A DNA stretch of 64,000 nucleotides from Candidatus Bathyarchaeia archaeon (GTDB lineage Archaea; Thermoproteota; Bathyarchaeia; 40CM-2-53-6), in the NCBI GenBank assembly GCA_050013255.1, contig JBEKFP010000001.1:960001-1024000 (forward strand), read 5' to 3'. Positions 18,799 through 47,154 of the stretch are shown piece by piece. A program made the position numbers and the translations under genes. Below the pieces are notes generated by a model. That model did not search any database, was not told the DNA's origin, and saw only the letters and a list, made by a program, of their open reading frames with translations. The first letter of the stretch is position 1. Every line of letters begins with the position of its first letter.

Positions 18799-19617
18799 TT
18801 AGCTTGCCTTAGTGATCTCTCGTTCAGCGATTGAGAGCGGCTTGCCGGTAGCCTTCTTTCTTCGCATGATGATTTCAGCCATTGTGCTGACGGCGATTTC
18901 TGCTGGGGTTTCAGCGCCAATGTCCAAGCCGATTGGTGTTACCACGCGGCGGAGTTGGTCTTCGGGAACTTTATCCCTTCTCAACTTCCCTAGAATCGCC
19001 TTCGCTTTGGATTCGCTTGAAATCATTCCTATGTAGGCTGCTTTTGACCCGATGACGGTTCTGAGGGCTAATTCATCGGATTCGCCAGCATAGGTTAAGA
19101 TCACCACGTACGTCTGCTCATCAATTGGGACTTCCCGCAACGCCTTCTCCCAGTCATCAACGATGAGTTTGTCCGCTTCTGGAAATCTTTCCTTGGTAGC
19201 GTACTCAGTCCTATCGTCGACGACGACCACCCTGAACCCTAGTAGTTTTCCTAGTGCAGCCATGGGTTGGGCGACGTGGCCTGCGCCGGCTAGGAGTAAA
19301 GTTTCGCGGGGTTGGAAGACGTTGATGAAACAGGTTATGACGCCCGCGCATACAGGGAGGGGCATTTTGACGGTTCTTGGTTTTCCCTCTTTGATTGCTG
19401 AAATGGCTTGGTCGATTAGTTGTAGTTCGGCAACGGCTCCGCCAACAGTTCCGATCACTCTACCCTCACTGGTTACAATCATCGAGGAGCCAAGGTGGCG
19501 CGCGCTGGACCCCTCTTGGCCGATTATCGTTACCCAAGCGAAGGCTTTGGATGCTTCAATCAGCTTATTCGCTTCTTGAATGATCTCTGTGTCCGAAGCT
19601 ACTGGGATAAGTTTCAA
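18799..19617 (-). CDS. xdhC: XdhC/CoxI family Mo-cofactor maturation protein
   Basis: GTVGG, GAGHVA, VVDDR, YIGMISS, PIGLDIGAETPAEIAVS. Confidence 0.92.
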   Translation of the reverse strand: MKLIPVASDTEIIQEANKLIEASKAFAWVTIIGQEGSSARHLGSSMIVTSEGRVIGTVGGAVAELQLIDQAISAIKEGKPRTVKMPLPVCAGVITCFINVFQPRETLLLAGAGHVAQPMAALGKLLGFRVVVVDDRTEYATKERFPEADKLIVDDWEKALREVPIDEQTYVVILTYAGESDELALRTVIGSKAAYIGMISSESKAKAILGKLRRDKVPEDQLRRVVTPIGLDIGAETPAEIAVSTMAEIIMRRKKATGKPLSIAEREITKAS

Positions 19618-21965
19618 ATCTTTTCCTTCTCCCCGGCCTTTTTGGCTTCCCGCGCCCTCTTCATGGCTATTAACACTTTATCGGGTGTGGTGGGTATTTC
19701 GTATAGCCTAACTCCTAGTGCATTGTCAATTGCGTTGACGATGGCGGGTGCGGGTAGGACTATTGGCGGTTCCCCAATTGCTTTCGCGCCGTATGGGCCT
19801 AGGTGTCCTGGGTATTCTACGATTATGGTTTTGATTTCGGGGATGTCGAGTGAGGTGGGTATGTAGTAGTCTGCAAGGTTGGGGTTTTGGACGATGCCAT
19901 CTTTGTGGACCAAATCTTCCATAATTGCGTAACCTAATCCTTGCACTGTGCCCCCTTCGATTTGGCCTTCGACGGATAGCGGGTTGATGGCTTTGCCTAC
20001 ATCGTAGGCTGCGACCATCTTCTTGACCTGCACTTTGCCAGTTTCACTGTCAACTTCCACTTCAGCTGTGACTGCGCCGTACGTGTATTGTAGGTATGTT
20101 GTTCCTTGGCTTGTTTCAGGATCGTATTCGCATTTGGGCGCTGTAAATGTTCCAGACTCTTTCAGCTGGATCCCGTGCTTGTACGCGTGTTCGACCAATT
20201 CTTGGAAGGAGAAGGAGTGTTGGGTCTTAGATTTCTGGTAGTATTTTGCGTCAGCTGATTCGACTTCGCTGGTTGCGCAACCTAACATTTCCGCCGCAAT
20301 ATCTTTGAGCTTCTGGTTCAGCGTGCCAGCAACCATCTGGGTTGCGCGGCCGCCGATTGTAATCGTTCGCGAAGCGACAGTCGGGCCGGTGTCAGTGCAG
20401 AAATCTGTGTCGGGTGCTTCCAGCCTAAAGTAGTTCATGGGGAGGTGCATGGTCTCCGCAGCGATTTGTATTAGGCCGGAGGGTGCTCCAGTTCCATATT
20501 CCGTGAGCCCAGTCCTAAATCTGATTGTGCCGTCCCTGTCGATTTGCATGTGGACTGCCGCGTAATCGTTTCCCTCTGGGCCAAGGCTGTTTCCATGGTA
20601 GAGGATAGCGATGCCTAGGCCTCGGCGCTTGGTTCCCCTCATCTTAGCGAACTCTTCGCGCTTCCTATACCAATCTGATTCCTTCACCGCCTTGCTAATG
20701 CATTCTTCGAGTCCGCACGCTTCGTCGACGACTTGGCTAGTAGCCGTCAAACTTCCCGGTCGCAGGATGTTTAACAGGCGGAAGTCTATTGGGTCCATGC
20801 CGAGTTTCTTTGCAATCTCGTCAGCGATTGATTCAGCCGCAAAATGCGACTGCGGTCCGCCGAAGCCTCGGAAGGAGCCGGCCATGGTGTTGTTAGTGTA
20901 AACGCAGTAGGCGTCCGTTTTCACGTGCGGGATAACGTAGGGGCCCGTTGCATGGAAGCATGCCCGAATGACGACGAGTGGACCTAGTGAGGCGTATGCT
21001 CCCGTGTCCGCGAGCATGGTTGCTTGCCAAGCCGTGAATTTGCCATCCTTCTTCACACCGACCTTCAATGTCGTAACGAATGGGTGGCGCTTCGTGTGCC
21101 CTACCATGGATTCTTCGCGAGTGTAAGCTAGCGCGGCTGGTTTCCGAGTTTTTATCGCGACCAACGCCGCCATCCCCAAGACATCAACTGGTATCTCATC
21201 GGACTTTGGACCGAATGCGCCGCCCGTCACGGCTTGTATGACGCGAACTTGGTCAGGCCGCAGCGAGAGAATCTTGGCTATGCCAGTTTGGACGTGGAAG
21301 GGGCTCTGGATTGAGCCGACGCATGTTACCGAACCATCAGGCTCGGGAACCACGAATCCCGCTTCAGTTTCCAGTGGGACAGGTTCTTGGAATTGGCTCT
21401 TGTACGTGCGTTCAACGATTAGGTCCGCCTGTTTGAAGCCTTCCTCCACATTGCCCTTTCGCAATTTCATATGCTTGGCTATGTTCCCGTTCCTGTGAAT
21501 TGTCGGGGCGCCCGGTCTCAAAGCATCGACAGGAGAGAAAACTGCTGGTAGGGGTTCGTACTCAAGCTTGACCAAGTCAACTGCTTCCTCAGCGACGGAT
21601 TGGTCGTAGGATGCGATGGCCGCAATCGGTTCACCAGCAAATCTTACCCTATCAGTCGCGAACAGCGGCTTGTCTGGCAAAAGTGCTGTGGACTCGTTAA
21701 TGCCCGGAATATCTTGGGCGGTGACAACCGCCGCAACGCCAGGCAATTTTCTAGCCTCGGTAACGTCAACCCGCTTCAAAAGGGCATGCGCGACGCTTGA
21801 TCTCACAACCTTCAAGTACAGCGCATTTTCCGGAACGATATCCATTGTGTAAATTGGTTTCCCAAGCACTTTGTCGACAGAGTCGAGTCTTTGAATGTTT
21901 TTGCCCACAACTAGCAGTTGTCTGCTCTTCGTGAGTTTCTCTACTGCCGCTTGATCATCAACCAT
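19614..21965 (-). CDS. xanthine dehydrogenase family molybdopterin-binding large subunit (set 1)
   Basis: GGAFGPK, GSFRGFGGPQ, ASRT, GQIEGG..QGLG, GAKAIGEPP. Confidence 0.93.
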   Translation of the reverse strand: MVDDQAAVEKLTKSRQLLVVGKNIQRLDSVDKVLGKPIYTMDIVPENALYLKVVRSSVAHALLKRVDVTEARKLPGVAAVVTAQDIPGINESTALLPDKPLFATDRVRFAGEPIAAIASYDQSVAEEAVDLVKLEYEPLPAVFSPVDALRPGAPTIHRNGNIAKHMKLRKGNVEEGFKQADLIVERTYKSQFQEPVPLETEAGFVVPEPDGSVTCVGSIQSPFHVQTGIAKILSLRPDQVRVIQAVTGGAFGPKSDEIPVDVLGMAALVAIKTRKPAALAYTREESMVGHTKRHPFVTTLKVGVKKDGKFTAWQATMLADTGAYASLGPLVVIRACFHATGPYVIPHVKTDAYCVYTNNTMAGSFRGFGGPQSHFAAESIADEIAKKLGMDPIDFRLLNILRPGSLTATSQVVDEACGLEECISKAVKESDWYRKREEFAKMRGTKRRGLGIAILYHGNSLGPEGNDYAAVHMQIDRDGTIRFRTGLTEYGTGAPSGLIQIAAETMHLPMNYFRLEAPDTDFCTDTGPTVASRTITIGGRATQMVAGTLNQKLKDIAAEMLGCATSEVESADAKYYQKSKTQHSFSFQELVEHAYKHGIQLKESGTFTAPKCEYDPETSQGTTYLQYTYGAVTAEVEVDSETGKVQVKKMVAAYDVGKAINPLSVEGQIEGGTVQGLGYAIMEDLVHKDGIVQNPNLADYYIPTSLDIPEIKTIIVEYPGHLGPYGAKAIGEPPIVLPAPAIVNAIDNALGVRLYEIPTTPDKVLIAMKRAREAKKAGEKEKI

Positions 21966-21971
21966 TGGTTG

Positions 21972-22445
21972 CTACTTCTCCATTTCATGAGCCGCTGCCT
22001 TCACGGCCTCAAAGATTTTCAAGTAGCCTGTGCAGCGGCATAGGATTCCGCTGGTTGCCCTGCGGATCTGGTCCTCACTTGGGTTGGGGGTCTTGTCGAG
22101 AAGGTTCTTTGATGCCAGAATCATGGCTGGGATGCAAAATCCACATTGAGACGCATTCCATTCCGTGAATGTTCGTTGTAGCGGGTGAAGCTTCTCGGCG
22201 GTTCCGATTCCTTCGATGGTTCCGATCTTCTTGTTTCTGGCTTGTATGGCGAAAATTAAGCATGAGTTGACGAGTTTCCCATCCATCAACACACCACATA
22301 TGCCGCAGTCACCTGTGCTGCAACCTTCCTTGGTTCCCTTCAAACCTAACCTGTCACGAAGGACATCCAATAATCGTTCATGGGATTGGACCAATAAAGC
22401 GTAGTCTTCTCCATTAACCGTGAACTTCAGAAGATGCTTAGACAA
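21972..22445 (-). CDS. XDH family 2Fe-2S small subunit (set 1)
   Basis: GTKEGCSTGDCGIC, QCGFC, CRCTGY. Confidence 0.93.
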   Translation of the reverse strand: MSKHLLKFTVNGEDYALLVQSHERLLDVLRDRLGLKGTKEGCSTGDCGICGVLMDGKLVNSCLIFAIQARNKKIGTIEGIGTAEKLHPLQRTFTEWNASQCGFCIPAMILASKNLLDKTPNPSEDQIRRATSGILCRCTGYLKIFEAVKAAAHEMEK

Positions 22446-23325
22446 AGCTTTCCTCCCCTAACAACATGCTCGCAGACCTACCAAGGGCCCGCTTGAAAAG
22501 CACGCTTGCGACATCGGTGCGGTATTCGCCCGAGACTCTGAAATCTGAACTTAGCTTCAGCTCGCTCCTCAAAGCGAAGGCAGCATCCTCGACGGCCTGC
22601 GCACTCAGCATTTGTCCGCGTAATTTCTCTTCAGCCCGCTTCGATCGTTCCGGGATCTTTCCGCCCACGCGGTTGAAGGCAATTCGAACATCTTCGACAC
22701 GCTTAGTTTTCCTTTCCAGCCTCAGATAGACAGCTGAATTAACGAAAGCAATTATCAGTGAATTTCTCATCCCAATCTTCTCGAAGGCGCATGCAGTTTG
22801 GTCATCGAGCGCCTTGAACATGGTCTCAACGACAATCTCGTTTGGTCTCAGGTCGGTTACTCGTTTGCCCTTCAGAAACTCCTCAAGCCGCATTACGCGT
22901 TCTCCATGTTCGCTGCGCATGCGAACTTGTGCATCAAGGACTAGGAGTACGGGTAGGAGGTCTTCAGATGATGAGGCGGCGCAAATGTTGCCGCCCACAG
23001 TGGCCACGTTGATTATCGATGGTCCACCGAACTTCGCCGCGACTTCACGGAAAACTTCGTGCCGTGAATCTATGATCGGTGAGTCGATCAGGTCGGATAT
23101 TGTTGTCAGTGCACCTATTCTGATTAGGTCCCCCGCTTTTTTCACGTAATTGAATTCCGCTAAGCCTGAAAGGTCGATTAGCGTTTTGGGGTTGACCTGC
23201 CTGCGTTGGATTCGGTTGATTAGGTCGCTTCCGTTCGCTATCAGGTGGACTCCGGACTGGTGTGTGTTTAGGTAGTGAAGTAGGTCAGGTAGGTCCTCTG
23301 GGACGTACATGTCGAACCTACGCAT
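22438..23325 (-). CDS. XDH family FAD-binding medium subunit (set 1)
   Basis: ANGSDL, IGALTT, ATVGGNIC, DFRVSGEYR. Confidence 0.9.
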   Translation of the reverse strand: MRRFDMYVPEDLPDLLHYLNTHQSGVHLIANGSDLINRIQRRQVNPKTLIDLSGLAEFNYVKKAGDLIRIGALTTISDLIDSPIIDSRHEVFREVAAKFGGPSIINVATVGGNICAASSSEDLLPVLLVLDAQVRMRSEHGERVMRLEEFLKGKRVTDLRPNEIVVETMFKALDDQTACAFEKIGMRNSLIIAFVNSAVYLRLERKTKRVEDVRIAFNRVGGKIPERSKRAEEKLRGQMLSAQAVEDAAFALRSELKLSSDFRVSGEYRTDVASVLFKRALGRSASMLLGEESFV

Positions 23326-23330
23326 CTAAC

Positions 23331-23606
23331 TCATCCACCTGCTGCTGGTGGAACTAGTAATACGAGGTCTCCATCATTTAGTTTCATCGAAAGGTCAGGC
23401 GGATTCTGAACTGCATTATTAACGTAGAAAAGGGTGTACCCTCGGAGTTGCCCTTCAGGGTCAAAGAGCAGGTCCTTAACGGCTCCGTTCTTATTGATGA
23501 GCGTCTGGAGCACCTCGTTCAGGGTGCTTGCTTGAACTTCGATTTCACTCTCGCCTACGCTCGCCCTCAATTCGTGAAATAACCTAACCTTGACTCTTGC
23601 TCGCAC
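23331..23606 (-). CDS. MoaD/SAMP ubiquitin-like sulfur carrier
   Basis: Beta-grasp pattern ending LVPPAAGG. Confidence 0.9.
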   Translation of the reverse strand: MRARVKVRLFHELRASVGESEIEVQASTLNEVLQTLINKNGAVKDLLFDPEGQLRGYTLFYVNNAVQNPPDLSMKLNDGDLVLLVPPAAGG

Positions 23607-25911
23607 TTGTTCCAGCCTCCTGTTCTTTCATCGCTTTGTAAACCCGTTCCGGCGTTGCAGGTAATGTGTAGACGCGTGTGCCAGTCGCGTCACATATGGC
23701 ATTAGCCACGACTGAACCCACGGGAATTATGCCGATCTCCCCTAGGCCCTTCGCCCCGAAGGGTCCGATCTTTTCGTACGTTTCAACCGGGTCCACTTCA
23801 ATCTCCGGGATGTCACATATTGTCGGAATAATGTAGGTGGTGAAGTTGTTGGTTCTTACTACGCCGTTCTGGATTTGGGTCTCTTCAGTTAGGGCGAAGC
23901 CTAGGCCTTGGACTATCGCGCCCTCGCATTGGCCAGTGTAGGATTGTGGGTTGATGATTCTTCCCGATTCAGGCGATAGAAAGAATTTGATCACCTTCGT
24001 GGCTCCCGTTAGAGTGTTTACTTCCACTAACGCAACTGCGCTTGCGTACATGTAAGACCAGTGCGGGATCTCTATGCTCCCTTCGACGGGTTTATCGACC
24101 CGTGGGACATTGAAGCCAGCCTCGATCTTCGTTTCCGCTCCTGATTGATGCATGTATTGGGCGATTTCAGGGTATGTGGCAGACTTGTTCTTCATCGAAA
24201 CCACGCGAGATTCTTTGAAGGTTAGCTTCTCCTTTGGCTGGCTGAGAATCTTCGCTGCGGCCTCGAGTAGCAAATCGTTCATCTTTGGAGCCGCAGCAAG
24301 AATCGCGTTGCCTCCTCTAACCAAGGCCATGGATGCTGATGATGTGCCAGTGTCTGGTGCTAGCTGCGAATCTCCTGAAGCGATGTAGACATCTCCGAGG
24401 TCACAGTGCAGCGCCTCAGCAGCAATCTGCGAATACGCCGTCACAGCTCCCTGTCCAATCTCCGGGCAACTAACCCCAACAACGAACTTACCGGCCGGCG
24501 TGATCTGAATTGAGACGGCGGCAAAATCCGGTAATGCTCCGAAACCAAAACCTTTCACAGCCGTTGTTACTGCGACCCCTCTCTTGCACCAAGGCGCCGA
24601 CGGTTTGGATTTGTATTGTTTCCGATTTCTCCAAACATCAGATCTCTCGGCTTTCTCAAGGGTTTCATAGATGCCCACGCTTCCGCGCAGTTTGTAACCG
24701 AAGGGGGCAATCTCACCTTCGCGGAGAACGTTCTTCTTGCGAATCTCCAATCTATCCATGCCGAGTTTCTCTGCAATGATGTCTAAGTTAGATTCTAATG
24801 CAAAGTTAACTTGTGGTGCGCCGAAACCGCGGAATGCACCGGCCACGCCGTTGTTGGTGTAAACTAGTGAGGCATCTATCTCGATATTTGGTATTCGGTA
24901 GGGGCCGCATGAATTCTCAATAGCAACATCTAGCACAGTAGGTCCCAGCGACGCGTATGCTCCGGTGTCGGCAACTATACGGACTTGATTGGCGAGAAGT
25001 CGGCCTTCCTTGTCCACTCCGGTTTTCGTTGTGACTATCATTGGGTGGCGTTTCATACCGGTGACCCCAGACTCTTCTCGAGTCCACACCATTTTCACCG
25101 GGCGTTTCGTTTTCAGCGCGAGCATCGCGAGGTGAATTTGGACTGTGTTCTCTTCTTTACCGCCGAAGGCACCTCCAACTGGTGTAGAAACAACTCTAAC
25201 CTGTTCAGGTTTTATTCCGAGCGCTCTCGAGACCTGCATTTGGTCTCTGTAAGGTGATTGCCCTCCCACGTAGAGCACGATCCTTCCTTGATCATCGAGC
25301 ATGCCGAGGCCGGCTTCAACCTCGAGAAACATGTGCATCTGCCGCCCGGTGCGGTATGTATTTTCAACGACCACCGCGGCTTCTCGGAATGCCTTTTGGA
25401 CATCACCCACGCGAACAGTTGCATGCCTCAGGACGTTTCCCTTTTCGTGGACTTTCGGGGCATCTGGTTTCATGGCTTCTACTGGGTCGGAAACGACGGG
25501 GAGAGGGTCGTAGTCAACTTCGACGAGCTGCGCAGCTTTCTCTGCTGCTTCCAAATTCTCCGCTGCGACAACAGCGATTGCGTCTCCTAGGTATCTTACC
25601 TTGTCGTTACATAGAACGGGTTGGTCGGGTAGAATGATGCCAAACCCGTTGAGCCCAGGGACATCCTTGTGGGTAAGAACCGCCACAACACCAGGTACCG
25701 CTTCAGCCTTCTCCGTGCTGATTCTCTTAATCAGAGCGTGGGGGTACTTGCTTCTCGCAACCTTAGCATAGAGCATCTTCGGTAATGACATGTCCGAAAA
25801 GAACTTGGTCTCACCGGTAACTTTGCCCGCACCGTCTCTCCGAACGACTGATTTTCCCACCCACTTCAATTTTTCCTTGCCAACTACAACGGTTTCAGTC
25901 ATCTCACTCAA
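23584..25911 (-). CDS. xanthine dehydrogenase family molybdopterin-binding large subunit (set 2)
   Basis: KVTG, GGAFGGK, GAFRGFGAPQ, EIGQG, GAKGLGE. Confidence 0.93.
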   Translation of the reverse strand: MSEMTETVVVGKEKLKWVGKSVVRRDGAGKVTGETKFFSDMSLPKMLYAKVARSKYPHALIKRISTEKAEAVPGVVAVLTHKDVPGLNGFGIILPDQPVLCNDKVRYLGDAIAVVAAENLEAAEKAAQLVEVDYDPLPVVSDPVEAMKPDAPKVHEKGNVLRHATVRVGDVQKAFREAAVVVENTYRTGRQMHMFLEVEAGLGMLDDQGRIVLYVGGQSPYRDQMQVSRALGIKPEQVRVVSTPVGGAFGGKEENTVQIHLAMLALKTKRPVKMVWTREESGVTGMKRHPMIVTTKTGVDKEGRLLANQVRIVADTGAYASLGPTVLDVAIENSCGPYRIPNIEIDASLVYTNNGVAGAFRGFGAPQVNFALESNLDIIAEKLGMDRLEIRKKNVLREGEIAPFGYKLRGSVGIYETLEKAERSDVWRNRKQYKSKPSAPWCKRGVAVTTAVKGFGFGALPDFAAVSIQITPAGKFVVGVSCPEIGQGAVTAYSQIAAEALHCDLGDVYIASGDSQLAPDTGTSSASMALVRGGNAILAAAPKMNDLLLEAAAKILSQPKEKLTFKESRVVSMKNKSATYPEIAQYMHQSGAETKIEAGFNVPRVDKPVEGSIEIPHWSYMYASAVALVEVNTLTGATKVIKFFLSPESGRIINPQSYTGQCEGAIVQGLGFALTEETQIQNGVVRTNNFTTYIIPTICDIPEIEVDPVETYEKIGPFGAKGLGEIGIIPVGSVVANAICDATGTRVYTLPATPERVYKAMKEQEAGTSASKSQG

Positions 25912-26147
25912 CCTCCCGCTATCGGTGGGACGACCAAGATTTCATCGCCGTCATTGAGCCTGGATGATGGTTTGAGCCTGACTCCTTCTCGAACAATGTA
26001 GAGGTAGTCTTTGTCCCTAACTGAGATGGAGTTGAGCAGATCTTCAGTTGTCGCGCCTTCGCCTAATTCAAGCGTTAGTTCGTTGCTCTCGAGCGCGAGC
26101 GAAGGAGCGCCAAAGATTCTGACCCGGACGTGGACAGGATTACCCGT
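25908..26147 (-). CDS. second MoaD/SAMP ubiquitin-like sulfur carrier (start uncertain)
   Basis: VRVRIFG...LNDGDEILVVPPIAGG; no ATG/GTG/TTG near the domain start; in-frame ACG at 26147. Confidence 0.8.
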   Translation of the reverse strand, partial: TGNPVHVRVRIFGAPSLALESNELTLELGEGATTEDLLNSISVRDKDYLYIVREGVRLKPSSRLNDGDEILVVPPIAGG

Positions 26148-27024
26148 GAATCTTCTTCCTCCCGTACACTGCCTCGTAAAGGGCCTGGTAGACTGATGAG
26201 ACAACTGCACTCTTCCTGTACTCAGCTGAACCACGAATGTCATCTATCGGTGCAGTGTCTTCTGCGGCCAGGGTGGCAGCTTCCCACAGGGTTTTCTCCT
26301 TCAACGGCGTATGCTCCAACGCCTTCTCGCTCTTGCGAGCTCGCGTTATTACAGGGGCAACGGCACCTAGGGCAACTCTCGCCTCAGCAAATGAACCGGA
26401 CGAGTCTCTCTCGCGCAGTACCACCGCCACGTCAACTATTGAAATTGCATTAGCTTCCCGCAGGCCGAGTTTCATGTAGGCGCCGCGATCCTTTGAATTC
26501 AATGGCTTGAAGTAGACTTCTTCGATCAATTCGTCTGGCCTAAGTGCGGTCTTTCTGTAGGAGACGAAAAATTGCTCGACGGGAGTTTCGCGCCGACCGG
26601 CTTTACTTTTCGTGACGACAACAGCCTCGAGAGCATACAATGGGGGGAGGCTATCTCCTGCCGGTGAAGCGTTACCTAGGTTCCCACCTAACGTTGCTGT
26701 ATTCTGGAGTTGGACGGCACCAATCTGCCTAGAAGCGTCAACAAGAACCCAAGCATGCTCCCTCGCTAACTGGGAATTCGTGATGTCGCTATAAGTGGTT
26801 AGGGAACCAATGTGAATCAAGCCATCTTGCTCTCGTATGAATCTCAGTTCCTTCAGAGACAGTATGTTCAATAGTTTCTCGACTTTCATGACGCCGTCTC
26901 GAAGTTGCACAATTACATCTGAGCCACCGGCCACAATCTTAAGCTCGGCTTGACCTTGATGGAGGATGTTGAGCGCTTCATCCAAAGTCTGGGGAGTTAT
27001 TACATCGATTTCGGAGCGCGTCAA
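26140..27024 (-). CDS. XDH family FAD-binding medium subunit (set 2)
   Basis: AGGSD, ATLGGNLGNASPAGD, DIRGSAEYR. Confidence 0.92.
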   Translation of the reverse strand: MTRSEIDVITPQTLDEALNILHQGQAELKIVAGGSDVIVQLRDGVMKVEKLLNILSLKELRFIREQDGLIHIGSLTTYSDITNSQLAREHAWVLVDASRQIGAVQLQNTATLGGNLGNASPAGDSLPPLYALEAVVVTKSKAGRRETPVEQFFVSYRKTALRPDELIEEVYFKPLNSKDRGAYMKLGLREANAISIVDVAVVLRERDSSGSFAEARVALGAVAPVITRARKSEKALEHTPLKEKTLWEAATLAAEDTAPIDDIRGSAEYRKSAVVSSVYQALYEAVYGRKKIHG

Positions 27025-27028: not shown

Positions 27029-27517
27029 TTAATGACTCCAATTCTTTGCGGCTTTCTGAACGGCTGTAATTATCTTACTGTAGCCAGTGCACCTGCAGAG
27101 GTTGCCTGATAGGGCTGTCCGAATTTCTTCCACGGAAGGTTTCTGGTTACGCATTAAGAGTGCTGAGGCTGAAACGATCATGCCTGGAATACAATGGCCG
27201 CATTGAACGGCTCCTTCCTCGAGGAAGGCTTGCTGAACTGGGTTCAGTTTCCCATCTTTCACGAGCCCTTCTGATGTAATGACCTCAGAACCTTGCGCCT
27301 GTGAAACTAGGACGAGGCAGGAACAGACGGGTTGGCCATTCATCATTACTGTGCAGGCCCCGCACTCGCCCTTAGCGCAGTCTTCCTTCGGCCCTGTCAC
27401 GTGCAGCTGCTCGCGGAGGACCTCAAGCAAAGTGTAAGCAGGTGGACATTTCACTGTCACATTTTGCCCATTGAGCCTGAAACTTATGGCGTGTTCAATA
27501 CCCACTCGACCTGACAC
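27029..27517 (-). CDS. XDH family 2Fe-2S small subunit (set 2)
   Basis: CAKGECGACTV, QCGHC, GNLCRCTGY. Confidence 0.93.
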   Translation of the reverse strand: MSGRVGIEHAISFRLNGQNVTVKCPPAYTLLEVLREQLHVTGPKEDCAKGECGACTVMMNGQPVCSCLVLVSQAQGSEVITSEGLVKDGKLNPVQQAFLEEGAVQCGHCIPGMIVSASALLMRNQKPSVEEIRTALSGNLCRCTGYSKIITAVQKAAKNWSH

Positions 27518-39303: not shown

Positions 39304-40074
39304 CTAGATATAATTTGCGAAGGCTTCCCAGCCACGGTTATGCTGAAACAGCCACGTTTCCATAGCCAATGGCACGAATACGCTTTCAGTCGCGGATGTG
39401 GCGACGGGATTTAGCTTGTAGCCTATCAGACTTTGGGTGACTTTCTCATGGTCGTTATAGAATTCGCCGTACACAACTTGTCCCAATCCGGTGTCAAACC
39501 ACAAGGTCTCTGACAAAGTTCCATTCTGCATAACCATGATCTTGAATGCTTGGAATTGGCCGAGAGGAGTCGAAACCTCATCCATTGACGAAGTTATTCT
39601 CACCTGTAAGAGCAATGCAGTCGAAGTGATGGTTGTGTTATTCAGCTTGGTTATGGTTAGCACTGTGCTCTTCACATTCCATTGGTCTCCAACATGGAAG
39701 GGGACTTGAAAGAGTTGGACAGGTGGTTTGTAGGTTATTGTGGAGTTAGCGAGTAGGTTTCCGATAGCTGGCGTGAACGTTCTGACTTCATGCCAATCAA
39801 GCGTGATCCAGAGGTATTGAGTCGAAATATGGTGTGGATCATCGCGTAGAATCATGTACGTTTCTGTACCATTCAAATCGATAATTCCTCTGACTGACTC
39901 GGTTAACTGGTAGCTTTCAGAATCAGGAAATACAATCTTGTAGTTCCAGCTGTCCCCCACCGCCAATCGGCGACTCAACGCACCTTTCGACTCATGCCAC
40001 CTGATTGCTAGTGGATAGAAAACCACGAGGGCCGTCACCAAAAGTCCCAGTGCAATGATAGAGCGTTTTGACAG
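39304..40074 (-). CDS. hypothetical secreted or membrane-anchored beta-rich protein
   Basis: VGDSWNY, PFHVGDQW, VSTPLGQFQAF, WFD..LG patterns; a complete signal anchor needs a CTG start at 40074 (track start 40041). Confidence 0.7.
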   Translation of the reverse strand: MSKRSIIALGLLVTALVVFYPLAIRWHESKGALSRRLAVGDSWNYKIVFPDSESYQLTESVRGIIDLNGTETYMILRDDPHHISTQYLWITLDWHEVRTFTPAIGNLLANSTITYKPPVQLFQVPFHVGDQWNVKSTVLTITKLNNTTITSTALLLQVRITSSMDEVSTPLGQFQAFKIMVMQNGTLSETLWFDTGLGQVVYGEFYNDHEKVTQSLIGYKLNPVATSATESVFVPLAMETWLFQHNRGWEAFANYI

Positions 40075-40169
40075 AATCCGCCCGCCTTTCTATACTTGTC
40101 AGGTTTGTTGCACAGGGAATTCAATTAAAGCAGACCCGTGCAACTCAGGCACCCGGCGAAGTGGTCATC

Positions 40170-41561
40170 ATGGCATCTATTCTGATTTCCGGCGGGACAG
40201 TCATAACCATGGATGCGAATCGGCGGATTATTAGGGACGGAGCGGTTCGGGTCGAAAACGACCGTATCGCCGAAGTGGGGAAGGCAGACCAAATTGGGGT
40301 GCATCCGCGGCCTGAGTACGAAATAGACGCGAAAGGGATGGTCGTCCTTCCGGGGCTAATTGATACGCACGTTCACCTCGCCCAAGCTCTTATTCGTGGA
40401 TGTGCGGACGATACATCATTAATAGATTGGCTTCAGAAATTTGTCTGGCCCCTTCAAGGCAACTTCGAAGCAGGGGATGGGAAGGCAAGTGCCAATCTGT
40501 GCATGCTTGAAATGATAAAATCCGGAACGACAACCTTCCTCGAGAGCCTACTGCACACGCGTTACGGCTTCGATGGCATAGCCGAAAGCGTGCAGAAGTC
40601 AGGAATGCGTGGCATCCTCTCAAAGACTGTTATGGGATTGCCGGGCTACGGAACCGAAAAAAGCATAATGCATCCCGGAATGATCGAAGACGCTGAAACC
40701 TGCCTTCGCGAAGTCGAATCACACTTCAAACGGTGGGACGGCAAAGCGAACGAGAGGATTAAGGTTTGGTATGGTGCTCGGTCGCTTGGTGGCTGCACAA
40801 AAGACCTGTACGAACGTATCGCAAACGGCGCTCGGGGTCTCGGAACCGGAGTAACGATGCACCTGAGTGAGGTTCAGGAGGACGTTCGGTATGCCAAGAA
40901 AGAGTTCGGAATGATGCCAGCGGAATTCATGAATAAAGTCGGTTTAGTGGGCCAGAATGTTGTTTTCGCCCACGGGGTCTGGCTCACTGAGAAGGAATGG
41001 CGAATATTGGCCGATAAGGGAGGTAGTGTTGCCCATTGCCCATCATCTAACATGAAGCTTGCATCTGGAATTGCGAAGGTCCCGGAGATGTTGCGAGCGG
41101 GAGTGAATGTGGGTCTCGGATGTGACGGTGGCCCAAGCAACAACTGCTACGACATTGTTCGTGAAATGAAAACGGCTTCGCTACTTCAAAAGGCAAGGTT
41201 GCTCGACCCACTAGTGATGAGTGCTGAGACGGTTCTGGAAATGGCCACGATCCACGGAGCAAAAGCCATTGGCCAGCAGAAAGACTTGGGGTCGATCGAG
41301 GTGGATAAGAAGGCTGATGTAATCTTGATAGCACTGAACAAACCTCACCTGACACCGGTTTTCAACCCAGTTTCACACCTCATTTACGCGGCGGAGGGAA
41401 CCGATGTCGAAACTGTGATAATTGATGGAGAAGTCGTAATGGAAAACAGAAACCTCAAAACACTCGAAGAGGAGGAAGTCCTCAAAGAGGCAAACGAAAG
41501 GGGCCAAAAGCTCTTGGAAAGGGCGGGTCTCGAAATCGAACCCAAGTGGGCGGTTTCCTAA
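40170..41561 (+). CDS. amidohydrolase/deaminase (MtaD/SsnA/Atz-Trz family)
   Basis: PGLIDTHVHLAQ, HLSE, FAHGVW, HCPSSNMKLASG, GCDGGPSNN; ATG at 40170. Confidence 0.9.
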   Translation: MASILISGGTVITMDANRRIIRDGAVRVENDRIAEVGKADQIGVHPRPEYEIDAKGMVVLPGLIDTHVHLAQALIRGCADDTSLIDWLQKFVWPLQGNFEAGDGKASANLCMLEMIKSGTTTFLESLLHTRYGFDGIAESVQKSGMRGILSKTVMGLPGYGTEKSIMHPGMIEDAETCLREVESHFKRWDGKANERIKVWYGARSLGGCTKDLYERIANGARGLGTGVTMHLSEVQEDVRYAKKEFGMMPAEFMNKVGLVGQNVVFAHGVWLTEKEWRILADKGGSVAHCPSSNMKLASGIAKVPEMLRAGVNVGLGCDGGPSNNCYDIVREMKTASLLQKARLLDPLVMSAETVLEMATIHGAKAIGQQKDLGSIEVDKKADVILIALNKPHLTPVFNPVSHLIYAAEGTDVETVIIDGEVVMENRNLKTLEEEEVLKEANERGQKLLERAGLEIEPKWAVS

Positions 41562-41618
41562 GAATCTACCATAAGGTTCAAGTTTGAAGTAGCGTTGCGA
41601 AATGGTGGTCTGAGGCAA

Positions 41619-42671
41619 ATGAGCATAAAGTGGGCGAAATCGCGTAAGGTCGCTGACGGCGTATTCCAAACGATTGGCCGGACTCCACTCGTTAAACTGC
41701 GGAGGATACCGGCCTCTGAGGTGGTCAAAGCGAACATTCTGGTTAAACTTGAGTACATGAATCCTACCGGCAGCCTCAAGGACCGTATATATTTCGAAAT
41801 GATAACGAGGGCGATTGAGCGCGGGGATTTGCGGCCTGAAATGGAGATACTGGAAGCTTCTACGGGTAATGCAGGTATCGCTTGCTCATTTGTTGGCACT
41901 ACGCTAGGTCACAAGGTAACGATCGTTATGCCTGCGGGCATGAGCCAAGAGAGGATGAAGATCATACGGGCTTACGGAGCCGAGATCATTACAACGCCAG
42001 GGGCAGAAAGCGACGTGGACTTATGTCTGAAGAAGATTGAGGAACTGAAGCAGGCAAGTCCAGGCAAATATTGGGAGCCTGGCCAGTTCAGCAACAAAGA
42101 CAATGTTGCCGCCCATTACAAAACGACTGGCCCTGAGATTTGGGAGCAGAGCGGAGGAAAAGTTGACTGTTTCCTAGCGTCGCAAGGAACTGGGGGAACT
42201 TTGACGGGTGTTGGCAAATACCTGAGAAAGAAGAAAAAGAAGGTGGCGCTTTTCGCAGTGGAACCGTCAGAAGCACCAATCCTAGCTCACCGTCAATGGG
42301 GAACTCACAAGATCGAAGGAATTGGAGACGGGTTTGTCCCGGTAAACCTCGACCTTAGCTATCTCACAGGAATAATTACAACTGGTTCCGATGAATCCAT
42401 TGAAATGGGCAGAAGGCTAGCTAGAGAAGAAGGAATCTTCTGCGGGATATCCTCAGGATGCAATGTACTTGCAGCAATAAAGGTCGCCAAGCGTCACCCT
42501 GGATACAAAACGATTGTAACGATGGTGAATGACACCGGCCAACGATACTTCTCAACCGAGCTCTGCGGCGAAAAGAAACATGTGGAAGTCCCAGAAAGAG
42601 AACATCCACTTGACGAGTATACCACTACGCAGCTGGACAGGTATCAATCGCGTTGGGAAATTGTTGAATGA
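41619..42671 (+). CDS. cysteine synthase-like PLP enzyme (fold type II)
   Basis: NPTGSLKDR, EASTGNAG, GTGGT, HKIEGIG, GISSG; ATG at 41619. Confidence 0.85.
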   Translation: MSIKWAKSRKVADGVFQTIGRTPLVKLRRIPASEVVKANILVKLEYMNPTGSLKDRIYFEMITRAIERGDLRPEMEILEASTGNAGIACSFVGTTLGHKVTIVMPAGMSQERMKIIRAYGAEIITTPGAESDVDLCLKKIEELKQASPGKYWEPGQFSNKDNVAAHYKTTGPEIWEQSGGKVDCFLASQGTGGTLTGVGKYLRKKKKKVALFAVEPSEAPILAHRQWGTHKIEGIGDGFVPVNLDLSYLTGIITTGSDESIEMGRRLAREEGIFCGISSGCNVLAAIKVAKRHPGYKTIVTMVNDTGQRYFSTELCGEKKHVEVPEREHPLDEYTTTQLDRYQSRWEIVE

Positions 42672-43918
42672 AGTCCTTCCTTAAGCTCATGAAGTGCGCT
42701 CGCTGTGGGAGGGAGTACGAACCTGGCTCTGGCGCGATCCGGTGCGCAAATCACGATGACGGCCGCTTAGATATCTTCTATGACTACGAAGCTTTGCGCG
42801 GTGCCATCAACATAGAGGCACTGTCGAGAAGGCCAAACGGAGTTTGGAAGTACAGGGAACTTTTGCCGATTAACGATCCGAAGAACATAGTCAGCCTCGG
42901 AGAAGGCGGAACCCCCTTTCTGCGGGCACATCGATTGGGCGAGAAGCTAGGCTTGGATAATCTTTGGCTGCTGGATGACACTCGCAATCCGACCGCCTCG
43001 TTCAAAGACAGACCGATGACTGTTGGCGTCTCGAAAGCTGTTGAGCTGGGCTACCGGACTGTTGTGTCAGCCTCAAGTGGTAACGCTGCTGCAGCGTTAT
43101 CGGCCTACTCAGCGAAGGCAGGGCTCCGATGCATCACCTTCGTCCCAGAGATGACGAGCATAGGAAAATTGGCCCAGCTAACGATGTACGGGGCTCACGT
43201 CGTCAAGGTTCGAGGGTTAGAATCAGGGGAGGACCCAACTGTGAGAATGCTCAAGGCTGTTTGCGACCAGAACAACTGGTACCCTTGCCCAAGCTTTGGC
43301 CCCATGAACCCGTACCAAGCAGAGGGCCCGAAGACTATGTCCTATGAGATCGTTGAAGGGCTCGGTTGGGAAGTCCCCAACTGGGTCTTCGTTCCGGTGG
43401 GCGCAGGGGGTGCACTGGCGGGAAACTGGAAAGGCTACCTCGATTTTCAAAACTTAGGTTTCATAAAATCAATGCCGAGAATGGCCGCGGTCCAATCGAC
43501 CGGTTGCGCGCCCGTAATTCGGGCCTACGAGCAAGGCGCCGACCCAAAGAACATAGTTCCGTGGGAAATGGCCGACTCCATTGCAACAGGACTCATGGAC
43601 CCATATCCTTGGGATGGCGATGCGGCTCTTGTTGCCATCCGCAACTCTCATGGCGCGGCCGTTGCAGTTTCGAACGACGAAATCCTAGAAGCACAGAGGA
43701 AGCTCGCCAAATACGAAGGAATTTTCGCTGAACCGTCCGGCGTAACATCGCTAGCCGGCGTGATCAAAGAACGTGAAAATATAGACAGGGCTGATTGTGT
43801 TGTAGTGGAGATAACGGGAAGCGGTTTGAAAGATCCGAATGTGGCAACAAGAGGAATGCCAGAGATACCTATCATTGACGCCTCAATGCAAGAATTGGAT
43901 CGTGTACTGAAACTCTAG
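42668..43918 (+). CDS. threonine synthase-like PLP enzyme (fold type II)
   Basis: N-terminal CxxC, SLGEGGTP, NPTASFKDR, ASSGNAA, EGIFAEPS, TGSGLKD. Confidence 0.88.
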   Translation: MKSFLKLMKCARCGREYEPGSGAIRCANHDDGRLDIFYDYEALRGAINIEALSRRPNGVWKYRELLPINDPKNIVSLGEGGTPFLRAHRLGEKLGLDNLWLLDDTRNPTASFKDRPMTVGVSKAVELGYRTVVSASSGNAAAALSAYSAKAGLRCITFVPEMTSIGKLAQLTMYGAHVVKVRGLESGEDPTVRMLKAVCDQNNWYPCPSFGPMNPYQAEGPKTMSYEIVEGLGWEVPNWVFVPVGAGGALAGNWKGYLDFQNLGFIKSMPRMAAVQSTGCAPVIRAYEQGADPKNIVPWEMADSIATGLMDPYPWDGDAALVAIRNSHGAAVAVSNDEILEAQRKLAKYEGIFAEPSGVTSLAGVIKERENIDRADCVVVEITGSGLKDPNVATRGMPEIPIIDASMQELDRVLKL

Positions 43919-43933: not shown

Positions 43934-44962
43934 TCACTTTTTCCTGCGGCCCATGGTCACTGCGAGAACGGCCATTTTGGTGTACATGCCATTCTCCGCT
44001 TGGGGATAGATAACCGACTGTGGGCCATCCATTACTTGATCGGTAGCTTCTTCTCCGCGAAGCACAGGCAGCACATGAGTCACGACAGCCTTTCTGTCCA
44101 TCCTATCAAGTAAATCCTGATTCAACGTCCAATCGCGGTACTTCTCATGTAATTCCATCTCTCTTTCCTTCCCAAACTTACTTGCCCCAACTTGAAGCAA
44201 TTCATATGACGCCCAATTTCTAGGGAAGACCGCATGGGCTCCCTCGATTGCTGATTTCAAATCGTTTGAGACTTGAAAGCTGCCACCCGCCTCTGTGGCG
44301 TTTGATTTTGCTGTTTCCACTATCTTTGGGTCAATTTCGAAGCCCGGCGGGTGGGCCAGAACAACGTCCATTCCGAAGCGGGGCATGATCAATGCCTCCT
44401 CTTGTATACTACACCTGCCACGGAAGCTCTTCGCGTACCCCCACATTATGACATACTTCTTACCCTGCACCTTACCCAATGATTCCTGAACGGTCATCAA
44501 ATCGGCAAGTCCCTGAGTCGGGTGGTAAGTACAGCATGCCATGTTAATGACGGGAATCTCCGCATGTTCTGCGTACTCTCGAACGACGGAAACACCAGCA
44601 CCGTAAACGTAATCGATTGCTGAATCTAGAATTCGAATCCCTAACCCGTGGCCATATTTCTCATACATCTTAGCCACATCCTTCGGAGCTTCCCCCGACC
44701 CGAGCCGGGTTGTTGAGACGTCGATATACTGCGCATGGCCGCCTAGGTATGTCATACCAGCTTCAAACGCAGCTCTCGTCCTGGTCGAGGGCGCATAAAA
44801 CAACATGAAAAACGTCTTATCACGAAGAAGGGGTGGGACGCGGCCGCGCCTATATTTCGCCTTCAGGTCCCGTGCCACTTTGAGCGTTGCCCTGAGTTCA
44901 TCAAGCGACCAATCTTGCGTGGTGATTAAGTCTCTACCGGCCAAATCAACTTTCGGCATCAA
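43934..44962 (-). CDS. carbamoyltransferase, YgeW/AOTCase-like (copy A)
   Basis: FYAPSTRT, HPTQ, RFGMDVVLAHP, HVLP instead of HCLP, QAEN. Confidence 0.88.
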   Translation of the reverse strand: MMPKVDLAGRDLITTQDWSLDELRATLKVARDLKAKYRRGRVPPLLRDKTFFMLFYAPSTRTRAAFEAGMTYLGGHAQYIDVSTTRLGSGEAPKDVAKMYEKYGHGLGIRILDSAIDYVYGAGVSVVREYAEHAEIPVINMACCTYHPTQGLADLMTVQESLGKVQGKKYVIMWGYAKSFRGRCSIQEEALIMPRFGMDVVLAHPPGFEIDPKIVETAKSNATEAGGSFQVSNDLKSAIEGAHAVFPRNWASYELLQVGASKFGKEREMELHEKYRDWTLNQDLLDRMDRKAVVTHVLPVLRGEEATDQVMDGPQSVIYPQAENGMYTKMAVLAVTMGRRKK

Positions 44963-45088: not shown

Positions 45089-46042
45089 TTGACTGACAAA
45101 CTCATGGTGATCGCCCTCGGCGGAAACGCCCTTCTCCAGCGAGGACAGAAAGGTTCCTTCGATGACCAATACCGTAACGTAAAGGTTACCGTATCGAAAA
45201 TCGCGGATCTGGTCCAGCGCGGATACAAGATAGTCATGACCCATGGGAACGGCCCGCAAGTGGGTGCCACACTTCTGAGGCACGAGGCCGCTAAGAATAT
45301 CGTCCCGGCTTTTCCACTTGATGCATGCGGCGCTGAGACCCAAGGTTTCATTGGATATATGATCCAGCAGGCCCTCAGGAACGAGCTCAAATCCCGCGGA
45401 ATCGACAAGTACGTTGTTACCATAATAACGCGGGTCATTGTCGACAAGCATGATTCCGCCTTTCAGAACCCAACAAAACCAATCGGCCCTTTCTATTCGA
45501 AAGAGGAAGCAGCCAAAGTGAAAGAGCAGAAGCCTGAGTTGGTTATCAAGGAGGATGCTGGCCGCGGCTATAGACGAGTAGTGCCCTCTCCTGACCCGAA
45601 GATAATTGCGGAGCGTTCCGCCATCAGAGCCCTAGTGGATGCTGATTTCGTCGTGGTCGCTTGTGGCGGCGGTGGAATTCCAATCATTGAAGAGAACGGC
45701 CACGCCGTCGGAGTTGAGGCAGTGATCGATAAAGACCTGGGCGGCCAACGGTTAGCAACGCTAATTGGTGCAAACATATTTGTCATCCTAACTGACGTGG
45801 ACGGCGCCTACATAAACTACGGAACCTCGAAACAAGAATTGATCAAAGAAGCAACCTCAGGCATGCTGAGGAATCACCTTCGAGATGGACAGTTCAAAGA
45901 AGGGAGCATGGCGCCAAAGGTCGAGGCCGCAATCAGATTTGTTGAGAGCGGCGGGGAACGTGCAGTAATTGCGGCTCTAGGAAACTTAACCGAAGCCGTT
46001 GACGGAAAGACTGGGACACAAATCGTAATGCCAAGAGCTTAA
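45089..46042 (+). CDS. arcC: carbamate kinase
   Basis: ALGGNALL, THGNGPQVG, PTKPIGPFY, RRVVPSP, GVEAVIDKD, GSMAPKV. Confidence 0.96.
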   Translation: MTDKLMVIALGGNALLQRGQKGSFDDQYRNVKVTVSKIADLVQRGYKIVMTHGNGPQVGATLLRHEAAKNIVPAFPLDACGAETQGFIGYMIQQALRNELKSRGIDKYVVTIITRVIVDKHDSAFQNPTKPIGPFYSKEEAAKVKEQKPELVIKEDAGRGYRRVVPSPDPKIIAERSAIRALVDADFVVVACGGGGIPIIEENGHAVGVEAVIDKDLGGQRLATLIGANIFVILTDVDGAYINYGTSKQELIKEATSGMLRNHLRDGQFKEGSMAPKVEAAIRFVESGGERAVIAALGNLTEAVDGKTGTQIVMPRA

Positions 46043-46083
46043 TTCAAATAAGCGCAGGCAAACAGCCCGAGAAGGTAACCAAT

Positions 46084-47154
46084 ATGGTGTCGTTTGTAGG
46101 CAAATGGAAGGGTAAGCATTTCTTAGATACAGATGATTTCTCGCAAGAACAAATTAAGGAAGTTCTAGATGCAGCCGACGTATTGAGGAAACTATTCCGT
46201 GCCCGAAAGGAGCATCACTATCTCCCTGGAAAGACCCTCTTCATGATGTTTTATAACCGCTCTCTTAGGACAAGGAATTCTTTCGAGGCGGGAATGTATC
46301 AACTCGGCGGTCACGCCCACTTTCTTAGTCCACAAGACGTTTACACCCCCGCGCTTCCCGAAGACATGGTTGCCTATCAAACTGAAGCAATTTCAGACGT
46401 TTCACGTGTCCTGAGTAGGTATGGGGACGCGATTGCAATCAGAATCTATGGCGATGCAGCGAAATGGAACATAGGCAGAGGCCACAAGGTGGTTCGGGAA
46501 TTTGCAACGTACGCGACTATTCCAGTGTTGAACATGGAGGATGATATGTATCATCCATTCCAAGCTTTGGCCGATGCTCAGGCTATGAGAAATGCTATTC
46601 CTAAACTGAAGGGAAAGAAACTCGTTGTCTCTTATGCGTACTCTGGCGGACTAAAGCCACTGGCCGTCCCGCAAAGTGAGGTTCTAATCGGAACGCAGTT
46701 AGGAATGGATGTGGTCCTCGCGCACCCGCAAGGCTTCGAACTAGAAGACGTAGTCCTTGATGCCGCGAAGAAGAATGCGGATAGGTACGGCGGTGGGTTC
46801 CATGTAGTTAATGATATGAAGGAAGCCTTCAATGGCGCTGATGTAGTGTACCCGAAGGCTTGGTCGCCGAAGAACTATTTCCCTCCGCACCGCGACTCAC
46901 TAGACAAGACCGGCGCGACCACTTACCAAGACCAGTTCAAGGACTGGATATGCACCCAGCAAATGATGGATCTGACGAAGAAGGGTAAGTACATGCATTG
47001 CGGTCCGGCAGACCGGGGACAAGAAGTTACTGACGAAGTAATTGATAACATGAGTTACTCACTATACTTCGAGCAAGCCGAGAACAGGTTGCACGCCCAA
47101 AAAGCTGTAATGGCTATGGTCATGGGGGATCGCGGCACAACACGCCGAAAGTAA
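46084..47154 (+). CDS. carbamoyltransferase, YgeW-like (copy B)
   Basis: FYNRSLRT, HPFQ, AYSGGLKPLAVPQS, ADVVYPKAW, KDWICT, YMHCGPAD, QAENRLH. Confidence 0.88.
   Translation: MVSFVGKWKGKHFLDTDDFSQEQIKEVLDAADVLRKLFRARKEHHYLPGKTLFMMFYNRSLRTRNSFEAGMYQLGGHAHFLSPQDVYTPALPEDMVAYQTEAISDVSRVLSRYGDAIAIRIYGDAAKWNIGRGHKVVREFATYATIPVLNMEDDMYHPFQALADAQAMRNAIPKLKGKKLVVSYAYSGGLKPLAVPQSEVLIGTQLGMDVVLAHPQGFELEDVVLDAAKKNADRYGGGFHVVNDMKEAFNGADVVYPKAWSPKNYFPPHRDSLDKTGATTYQDQFKDWICTQQMMDLTKKGKYMHCGPADRGQEVTDEVIDNMSYSLYFEQAENRLHAQKAVMAMVMGDRGTTRRK

Follow-up and report, generated by a model that had tools for sequence, protein, structure and literature searches.

The reductive degradation of uric acid was solved in 2025, for gut bacteria only (PMC12507026). 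In the published pathway XdhD converts urate to 2,8-dioxopurine, the ring system is dearomatised by YgfK or UacX in a step coupled to SsnA, and SsnA and HyuA open both rings to give 2,3-diureidopropionate (PMC12507026). One ureido group is then phosphorolysed by YgeW, with ATP gained via YqeA, the other is hydrolysed by YgeY, and the diaminopropionate formed is converted to pyruvate by YgeX (PMC12507026; bioRxiv 10.1101/2025.04.24.650524). ATP formation by YgeW and YqeA was reported in the second of these works (bioRxiv 10.1101/2025.04.24.650524), and the passage from urate to diaminopropionate is a net four-electron reduction (PMC12507026). An F420 luciferase-family enzyme in the SsnA clusters of Chloroflexota has received a brief bioinformatic remark, for bacteria only (PMC12507026). 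We have analysed a window of 64,000 nucleotides (C1:960001-1024000) from the genome of a Candidatus Bathyarchaeia archaeon (GCA_050013255.1, contig JBEKFP010000001.1). Judging from its gene families and from their neighbourhoods in other genomes, the window probably holds the larger part of a Bathyarchaeia variant of this uric-acid/2,8-dioxopurine pathway, with the genes for SsnA, a cyclic amidohydrolase and MocA located 354 kb away.

In the proposed route, purine bases or nucleosides would enter through a Bmp-type ABC importer, and their exocyclic amino groups would be removed by adenine deaminase and probably also by an MtaD-like amidohydrolase (AmhW). Two enzymes of the xanthine dehydrogenase (XDH) family would form urate by hydroxylation of hypoxanthine and xanthine, and convert urate to 2,8-dioxopurine and back. 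A luciferase-like oxidoreductase (LLM) resembling Mer, the F420-dependent methylene-tetrahydromethanopterin reductase, would reduce the purine ring with F420H2 in place of YgfK or UacX, and SsnA and the cyclic amidohydrolase would open both rings to 2,3-diureidopropionate. Two carbamoyltransferases, the YgeW-like CTaseB and CTaseA, would phosphorolyse one ureido group each to carbamoyl phosphate, from which carbamate kinase (CK) would form ATP. Two pyridoxal phosphate (PLP) enzymes, one CysK-like and one ThrC-like, would take care of the C3 diamino acid in place of YgeX, leaving YgeY unnecessary, with pyruvate or a salvaged amino acid as the product. Starting from hypoxanthine the scheme would be redox-neutral, with the four electrons set free in forming urate balanced by the four taken up between urate and diaminopropionate. 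The LLM, the two carbamoyltransferases and the two PLP enzymes most likely stand in for three bacterial enzymes. The genes of the window are listed below, with family scores in bits from Pfam and NCBIfam models set against the curated cut-offs.

18799-19617, minus strand: XdhC-family molybdoenzyme maturation factor, last gene of its operon (PF13478 and PF02625; XdhC_rel_AOR 231 bits, under cut-off)
19614-21965, 21972-22445 and 22438-23325, minus strand: Mo, 2Fe-2S and FAD subunits of XDH set 1 (Pfam; XdhA_XDHase 562 bits, cut-off 780)
23331-23606, minus strand: ThiS/MoaD-like ubiquitin-fold protein with a GG end, between the XDH sets (PF02597 35 bits, cut-off 22.5)
23584-25911, 26140-27024 and 27029-27517, minus strand: Mo, FAD and 2Fe-2S subunits of XDH set 2 (Pfam; pucD 653 bits, cut-off 784)
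25908-26135, minus strand: second ThiS/MoaD-like gene, GG end, inside XDH set 2 (56-75% identity and the same position in metagenome relatives)
27722-28720, plus strand: F420-type luciferase-like oxidoreductase, Mer-like (LLM), divergent from the xdh operon (PF00296 226 bits)
28745-30601, minus strand: adenine deaminase, adenine to hypoxanthine (TIGR01178 548 bits, cut-off 472)
34409-39260, minus strand: Bmp/PnrA-type ABC importer, with permeases at 34409-35350 and 35354-36454, a double ATPase at 36426-37991 and a binding protein at 38067-39260 (Pfam)
40068-41561, plus strand: amidohydrolase AmhW of the MtaD/DadD, 8-oxoguanine-deaminase and chlorohydrolase group (5'-deoxyadenosine deaminase model 442 bits, cut-off 522)
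41595-42671, plus strand: CysK-family PLP enzyme (cysKM 347.7 bits, cut-off 344; cysK 345.7, cut-off 351; PDB 272 bits)
42668-43918, plus strand: ThrC-family PLP enzyme with an N-terminal Cys-rich segment (NF006050 335 bits, cut-off 303; PDB 220 bits)
43934-44962, minus strand: CTaseA, OTC superfamily (Pfam; all NCBIfam models under cut-off; motifs STRTR, HPTQ and HVLP)
45089-46042, plus strand: CK, flanked by CTaseA and CTaseB (arcC 428 bits, cut-off 358)
46084-47154, plus strand: CTaseB (AOTCase model 276 bits, cut-off 288)

An initial annotation of this DNA had listed the importer, adenine deaminase, two XDHs with XdhC, an amidohydrolase, two carbamoyltransferases, CK and two PLP enzymes, and all of them are present where it had placed them. 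It had overlooked the LLM and the two ThiS/MoaD-like genes in the xdh operon. It was also correct that YgfK, HyuA, YgeX and YqeB/C are missing from the window, as seen when the E. coli cluster proteins were searched by tblastn against the whole genome. Its central idea, an archaeal analogue of the bacterial route with non-orthologous replacements, fits the comparative evidence given below; the details for SsnA, the YgfK slot and the carbamoyltransferases had to be corrected.

The E. coli cluster (xdhD-ygfM, ygfK, ssnA, hyuA, ygeW, yqeA, ygeY, ygeX) has in common with this genome the XDH-family enzymes, an SsnA type, a cyclic amidohydrolase, a carbamoyltransferase with YgeW motifs, CK and MocA/XdhC. 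It differs in that orthologs of YgfK, YgeX and YgeY were not found here, with an F420-type LLM, CTaseA and the CysK-like and ThrC-like enzymes instead, and in that the XDHs here have three subunits and lack the XdhD insertion, the genes lie in two loci and the host is an archaeon. In the whole genome the best match for YgfK reached 33 bits against a cut-off of 835, that for YgeX 46 bits against 274, and for YgeY only weak M20 homologs (25% identity) were retrieved. The Chloroflexota F420 clusters (PMC12507026) share the same LLM subfamily, which stands beside SsnA in relatives, whereas the archaeal LLM adjoins the xdh operon and is combined with the module of two carbamoyltransferases and PLP enzymes. 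The Clostridioides difficile variant, with the PydA-type reductase UacX and the hydrolase UacY (PMC12507026), shares its reductase type with some archaeal relatives of our cluster (a second Bathyarchaeia family, Desulfurococcales and Asgard), while the window has the LLM instead of UacX and ureido cleavage would be phosphorolytic at both positions rather than hydrolytic. The succession of XDH, ring reductase, SsnA and cyclic amidohydrolase in the upper part follows the published pathway, with an LLM reductase hinted at for Chloroflexota only. Our literature search found no paper on the pathway in archaea, on the CTaseA/CTaseB pair, on a CysK-like/ThrC-like replacement of YgeX/YgeY or on a two-locus layout; in one metatranscriptome study XDH-family transcripts are assigned to Chloroflexota and Bathyarchaeota, with no pathway described.

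The strongest evidence comes from other genomes. The grouping of these genes exceeds chance, as they are found together again in further lineages of archaea and bacteria; the neighbourhood survey that the initial annotation had suggested thus found them co-conserved. In a contig of a related metagenome-assembled genome (GCA_030041295.1; L010/L012) all the parts, together with SsnA and HyuA, form a single cluster, in the order adenine deaminase, XDH set 1, CTaseB (74% identity), CysK-like (64%), ThrC-like (50%), XDH set 2, CTaseA (55%), SsnA (52% to the one in this genome), LLM (57%), CK, an ECF transporter and HyuA. The HyuA of this cluster (in L012) is 37% identical to that of E. coli and scores 473 bits with the D-hydantoinase model, above its cut-off of 393. 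In G064, a Bathyarchaeia genome of another family, the gene order is SsnA, CTaseB, CTaseA, HyuA, an amino-acid kinase, a PydA-type DHO_dh/Fer4 protein with a PreT/GltD-like partner, the ThrC-like and the CysK-like enzymes, and the reductase belongs to the C. difficile UacX type instead of the LLM. In the same genome (L014:11346-14139, L013:12798-14183) the purine cluster is interspersed with genes for three homologs of MtmB-family methyltransferases (possibly of a non-pyrrolysine type), a corrinoid protein and a URO-D-like methyltransferase.

An alignment scan with CTaseB over 185,579 species genomes gave 80 loci, 28 archaeal (Bathyarchaeia, Caldarchaeales, Hadarchaeota, Desulfurococcales and Asgard groups) and 52 bacterial (Bipolaricaulota, Thermotogae, Chloroflexota, Eisenbacteria, Cloacimonadota and others). 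Counting neighbours within 10 kb, with many loci ending at contig ends, CK was found in 6/28 archaeal and 36/52 bacterial loci, the XDH Mo subunit in 2/28 and 15/52, SsnA in 7/28 and 8/52, CTaseA in 9/28 and 37/52, and the ThrC-like gene in 11/28 and 10/52; YgeX was within 10 kb of CTaseB in none of either set (0/28 and 0/52). Four bacterial loci (L089, L093, L096 and L102) have a full-length YgfK (37-43% identical to that of E. coli) and XDH joined to CTaseB, CTaseA and CK, a direct connection between the window's lower module and the upper pathway as published. The first three of them also carry a ThrC-like gene and the last three a second PLP enzyme; YgeW and YgeX are in none of the four. 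Among 150 species genomes of Bathyarchaeia, orthologs of CTaseB (above 45% identity) were found in five, of SsnA in four and of the LLM in two, concentrated in one genus (g4) and in G064, and two of the genomes with CTaseB (G057, G075) had no ortholog of SsnA or LLM. These genomes are related and hence non-independent, so that we take the pattern as at least three lineages and attach no statistic to it.

By its fold, its best matches and the presence of CofD, needed for F420 synthesis, in the genome (345 bits, cut-off 257), the LLM appears to be a member of the F420-dependent class. Its best NCBIfam matches are F420 LLM families without exception, and the nearest solved structure is Mer (147 bits), although the LLM remains under the Mer equivalog cut-offs (200 bits against 276 and 184 against 349). 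Mer likewise reduces a fused N-heterocycle with F420, as the LLM is predicted to do, but the genomic context of the LLM is purine catabolism and not C1 metabolism. Most likely it is the 2,8-dioxopurine ring reductase in the slot of YgfK/UacX, an assignment supported by the swapping of this slot among lineages between LLM, PydA-type reductase and YgfK. The PydA/UacX type fills the slot in G064 and in the Desulfurococcales and Asgard loci, and the PydA-type protein of G064, used as a query, had no match in this genome. The LLM adjoins SsnA in L010/L012, in a Caldarchaeales locus (L027) and in two Chloroflexota loci (L067 and L087), with identities of 57% in L010, 47-49% in both Chloroflexota loci and 63-66% in many metagenome contigs. 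A scan of metagenomes with the LLM alignment gave 80 loci. Among the 46 at 63-69% identity SsnA was adjacent in 24, XDH in 30 and a carbamoyltransferase in 16, and of the 34 at 70% or above, 16 have XDH next to the LLM, 12 have adenine deaminase and 5 have AmhW. The xdh-LLM-ade layout of the window recurs in many of the 34, and the operon of XDH set 2 adjoins the LLM also in metagenome loci L109-L129. In loci of bacterial-style layout (L144-L188) the LLM is 63-66% identical to the archaeal query set, while the adjoining SsnA and XDH reach just 35-45%; an identity above that of the neighbours suggests strong constraint or recent inter-domain transfer. A second F420-class LLM (16849-17760, plus strand; TIGR03619 176 bits, cut-off 167) lies ca. 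1 kb past the XdhC end of the xdh operon.

The two carbamoyltransferases had both been described as YgeW-like. This holds for CTaseB, which has all four YgeW-type motifs (KPLAVPQ, DVVYPKAW, KDWICT and MHCGPAD) besides intact carbamoyl-phosphate motifs, and not for CTaseA, which has the carbamoyl-phosphate motifs only; neither passes the YgeW models (TIGR03316 and NF005538, cut-offs 453-500), with 163-169 bits for CTaseB and 133-141 for CTaseA. In a quick maximum-likelihood tree, built with no AOTCase, SOTCase or PTCase references and in which row L043 is a read-through artefact of ORF extension, both group with E. coli YgeW, itself on a long branch, apart from OTC and ATCase. They form separate clades (SH-aLRT 94 and 95) with archaea and bacteria in each. 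CTaseB would thus be the functional counterpart of YgeW, and CTaseA probably phosphorolyses the second ureido group, which would make YgeY unnecessary and yield up to two carbamoyl phosphates per purine. CK, 46% identical to YqeA, is the sole copy in the genome (one tblastn match).

The CysK-like and ThrC-like enzymes are the only candidates to replace YgeX in this genome. The former retains the PLP lysine and both the Asn and the Gly loop, with a conserved deletion of six loop residues and a C-terminal extension that is likewise conserved, and its orthologs (64-75% identity) stand beside CTaseB in seven loci (L010, L014, L015, L024, L026, L029 and L030); it may act on 2,3-diaminopropionate or a ureido-alanine. 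The "CysK-like" genes that adjoin CTaseB in bacteria (25-33% identity) were rejected as its orthologs, as they had no NCBIfam match at 1e-40. The ThrC-like gene is translationally coupled to the CysK-like one. It is one of four paralogs in the genome that reach or nearly reach the threonine synthase model, so that family membership leaves its function unfixed. Two further ThrC-like paralogs flank a stretch with a phosphoesterase copy at C1:1040001-1050000 (L106), ca. 80 kb downstream of the start of the window.

The nine genes of the xdh operon are read on the minus strand from 27517 to 18799, in the order Fe-S, FAD, ThiS-like and Mo (set 2), ThiS-like, FAD, Fe-S and Mo (set 1) and XdhC, so that transcription reaches one ThiS-like gene before each Mo-subunit gene. 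The two ThiS-like proteins may be sulfur carriers for the synthesis or sulfuration of the molybdenum cofactor. The orthologs in L010 are 49% identical for set 1 and 55% for set 2. Set 2 has the motifs GGAFGGKE and FRGFG, while set 1 has Ser where set 2 has Glu and retains the Arg of FRGFG. The combination of this Glu and Arg is the xanthine-type signature, as in the bovine enzyme, and we take it as a lead only.

On the entry side, the importer probably takes up purine bases or nucleosides, and its orthologs adjoin the carbamoyltransferases and CK in another genome (G128, L021) and in loci of Chloroflexota and Eisenbacteria. Adenine deaminase is co-located in L010, in L027 and in bacterial loci. 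AmhW, annotated initially as SsnA/MtaD-like, keeps only the MtaD half of that name; we rejected it as SsnA, with 224 bits against the SsnA model and a better SsnA candidate elsewhere in the genome. Among solved structures it is closest to atrazine chlorohydrolase, MTA/SAH deaminase and 8-oxoguanine deaminase. In Asgard loci its orthologs (54%) stand between SsnA and CTaseB, and orthologs at 57-61% are found beside LLM genes. It is probably an aminopurine deaminase feeding the pathway. Further along, at 52898-60363, there is an ECF-type transporter (double ATPase, CbiQ-like T component and a 186-aa protein), followed by an Xaa-Pro-dipeptidase-like amidohydrolase, a creatininase-family protein and an ArgE/DapE/YgeY-like M20 hydrolase. 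These genes may serve further amide or ureide catabolism, with weak links to CTaseB loci: the transporter (52.9-56.1 kb) has no match of at least 33% identity to that of the L012 cluster and was rejected as its ortholog, and its 39-43% matches near CTaseB in four other loci were judged too weak to include.

The SsnA-type gene lies on the same contig (C1:605331-606698), with SsnA as its best family and 34% identity to the E. coli protein, surrounded by a cyclic amidohydrolase, a MocA cytidylyltransferase and an eIF-2B/ribose-1,5-bisphosphate-isomerase-like gene, with an M20 hydrolase 4 kb off. Its orthologs cluster with genes of the window in L010, L014, L027, L034 and L039. The search for a hydantoinase in the genome, also suggested initially, did retrieve a hydantoinase-like cyclic amidohydrolase beside SsnA, albeit under the model cut-off (318 bits against 393). 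A second cyclic amidohydrolase, on C2, resembles the housekeeping PyrC. Since the hydantoinase-like enzyme and MocA adjoin the distant SsnA, the pathway is split across two loci 354 kb apart.

Several observations weigh against this reconstruction, the split itself being one of them. The SsnA candidate scores just under its cut-off (426 bits against 444), and its cyclic amidohydrolase neighbour is ambiguous, with 345 bits as dihydroorotase and 334 as allantoinase besides the hydantoinase score given above. Both XDHs are ca. 31% identical to XdhA and equally to XdhD (ca. 31%), and the XdhD insertion that holds E606 is missing from every XDH here, so that the assignment of a urate 6-dehydroxylase by that residue fails. 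The region is interrupted at 30640-34357 by a calcineurin-like phosphoesterase, an APC permease and a 268-aa protein, of families that are multi-copy in this genome. In some archaeal contigs (L007-L009) CTaseB is linked to the ThrC-like gene alone, in unrelated context. The CysK-like gene sits at the cysteine-synthase cut-off and is the only plain CysK type that was found, the other family member being CBS, so it could be a housekeeping gene. Finally, the search for CarB came out negative (best match 46 bits, cut-off 1027) at a marker-gene completeness of 100%, CK is common among Bathyarchaeia (62 of 151 genomes), and either CK or the phosphorolyses may serve the synthesis of arginine and pyrimidines rather than of ATP.

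This last point leads to the explanation that survives best beside the reductive pathway, namely that the carbamoyltransferases and CK supply carbamoyl phosphate for arginine and pyrimidine synthesis, by ureide phosphorolysis or carbamate phosphorylation, and do not make ATP. It could coexist with the pathway proposed here, and we regard it as unlikely. Without CarB, the genome may depend on the single CK of the window for all its carbamoyl phosphate, which both a distinct OTC (C2:511735-512655) and a PyrB-like gene (C1:1382201-1383118) require, and CK is far more widespread among Bathyarchaeia than the cluster, which is found in ca. 5 genomes. In Pyrococcus a carbamate-kinase-like enzyme is used anabolically. 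In a genome with no CarB, that CK runs in the ATP-yielding direction is an inference. However, the CTaseB-CTaseA-CK trio is conserved beside XDH, SsnA, HyuA and YgfK in many bacteria, which presumably have ordinary CarAB. Besides, E. coli YgeW and YqeA do make ATP from a pathway intermediate (bioRxiv 10.1101/2025.04.24.650524).

A chance juxtaposition of purine salvage and oxidation (adenine deaminase, XDH), a citrulline/ornithine-type catabolic unit (the carbamoyltransferases and CK) and housekeeping cysteine and threonine synthases is disfavoured, and we give it very little credit. It would account for the CysK-like and ThrC-like proteins passing or sitting at synthase cut-offs, for the carbamoyltransferases scoring best against the OTC and AOTCase models and for the unrelated multi-copy phosphoesterase and APC permease genes that interrupt the region, but the same families recur together, in varying order, in Bathyarchaeia, Caldarchaeales, Desulfurococcales, Asgard archaea and several bacterial phyla, and the genome has its OTC and three further ThrC paralogs elsewhere. 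About as little credit goes to degradation of another N-heterocycle or of urate by another route (for example allantoin to oxalurate with oxamate carbamoyltransferase, or the classical clostridial conversion of xanthine to formiminoglycine), for which speak the about equal allantoinase and hydantoinase scores of the SsnA-adjoining enzyme, M20 hydrolases that possibly resemble allantoate amidohydrolase and the many heterocycles that XDH-family enzymes accept, but against which stand that neither uricase nor OHCU decarboxylase was found when the genome was searched, that a specific adenine deaminase is co-conserved, and that each of the lineages examined combines SsnA with a ring reductase (LLM, PydA or YgfK), the distinguishing mark of the reductive route (PMC12507026).

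With the reductive pathway as the preferred reading, we put forward a wider proposal more tentatively, and would not yet bet on it: Bathyarchaeia and many uncultured anaerobes might run a redox-neutral, F420-coupled purine fermentation, with Mer-like dearomatisation, two carbamoyltransferases that give two ATP or carbamoyl phosphates per purine, and CysK- and ThrC-family enzymes newly active on diaminopropionate or ureido-alanines. Nucleic-acid bases would then be a source of energy and nitrogen in anoxic peat and sediment. In such habitats Bathyarchaeia rank among the most abundant archaea, and their energy sources are debated. If the reductive pathway is the right reading, it offers them a testable and redox-balanced way to ferment purines from dead biomass, and where CarB is lacking the cluster may in addition provide carbamoyl phosphate for biosynthesis. 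It would further assign a function to a Mer-like F420 subfamily conserved at 63-66% between the archaeal query set and presumed bacterial contigs, define two new carbamoyltransferase clades and predict new activities in the CysK and ThrC families.

The genome from which the window comes has 2.46 Mb in three contigs with 50% G+C. That the host is an archaeon is indicated by a Ribosomal_L21e gene, a family found only in archaea among the control genomes. A search for archaeal SSU rRNA gave no match, and no rRNA was found in the genome in spite of its marker completeness. Introns in most of the tRNA genes also point to an archaeon: ARAGORN detected 7 tRNA genes when introns were disregarded and 30 when they were allowed, some of these "introns" being implausibly long. 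As further evidence on the taxonomy, CTaseB falls in a protein cluster at 90% identity whose named members are all "Candidatus Bathyarchaeia archaeon", and near-identical DNA is present in peat and wetland metagenomes from 19 studies.

Some minor observations concern the surroundings. The phosphoesterase and the 268-aa protein that interrupt the region have at least six further copies each in the genome, several of them mutually adjacent (C1:945474-948138, 765194-766920, 1041263-1042234, 1080447-1082137 and others), and we saw no link of these to the pathway. The eIF-2B/ribose-1,5-bisphosphate-isomerase-like gene beside SsnA (C1:604012-605301; L003:14009-15301) has two counterparts near the cluster in a Desulfurococcaceae contig (L034:17440-18949), and another gene of this type adjoins a RuBisCO large subunit at C1:1312883-1315541. 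Together these isomerase-like and RuBisCO genes hint at processing of nucleoside ribose via a pentose-bisphosphate route.

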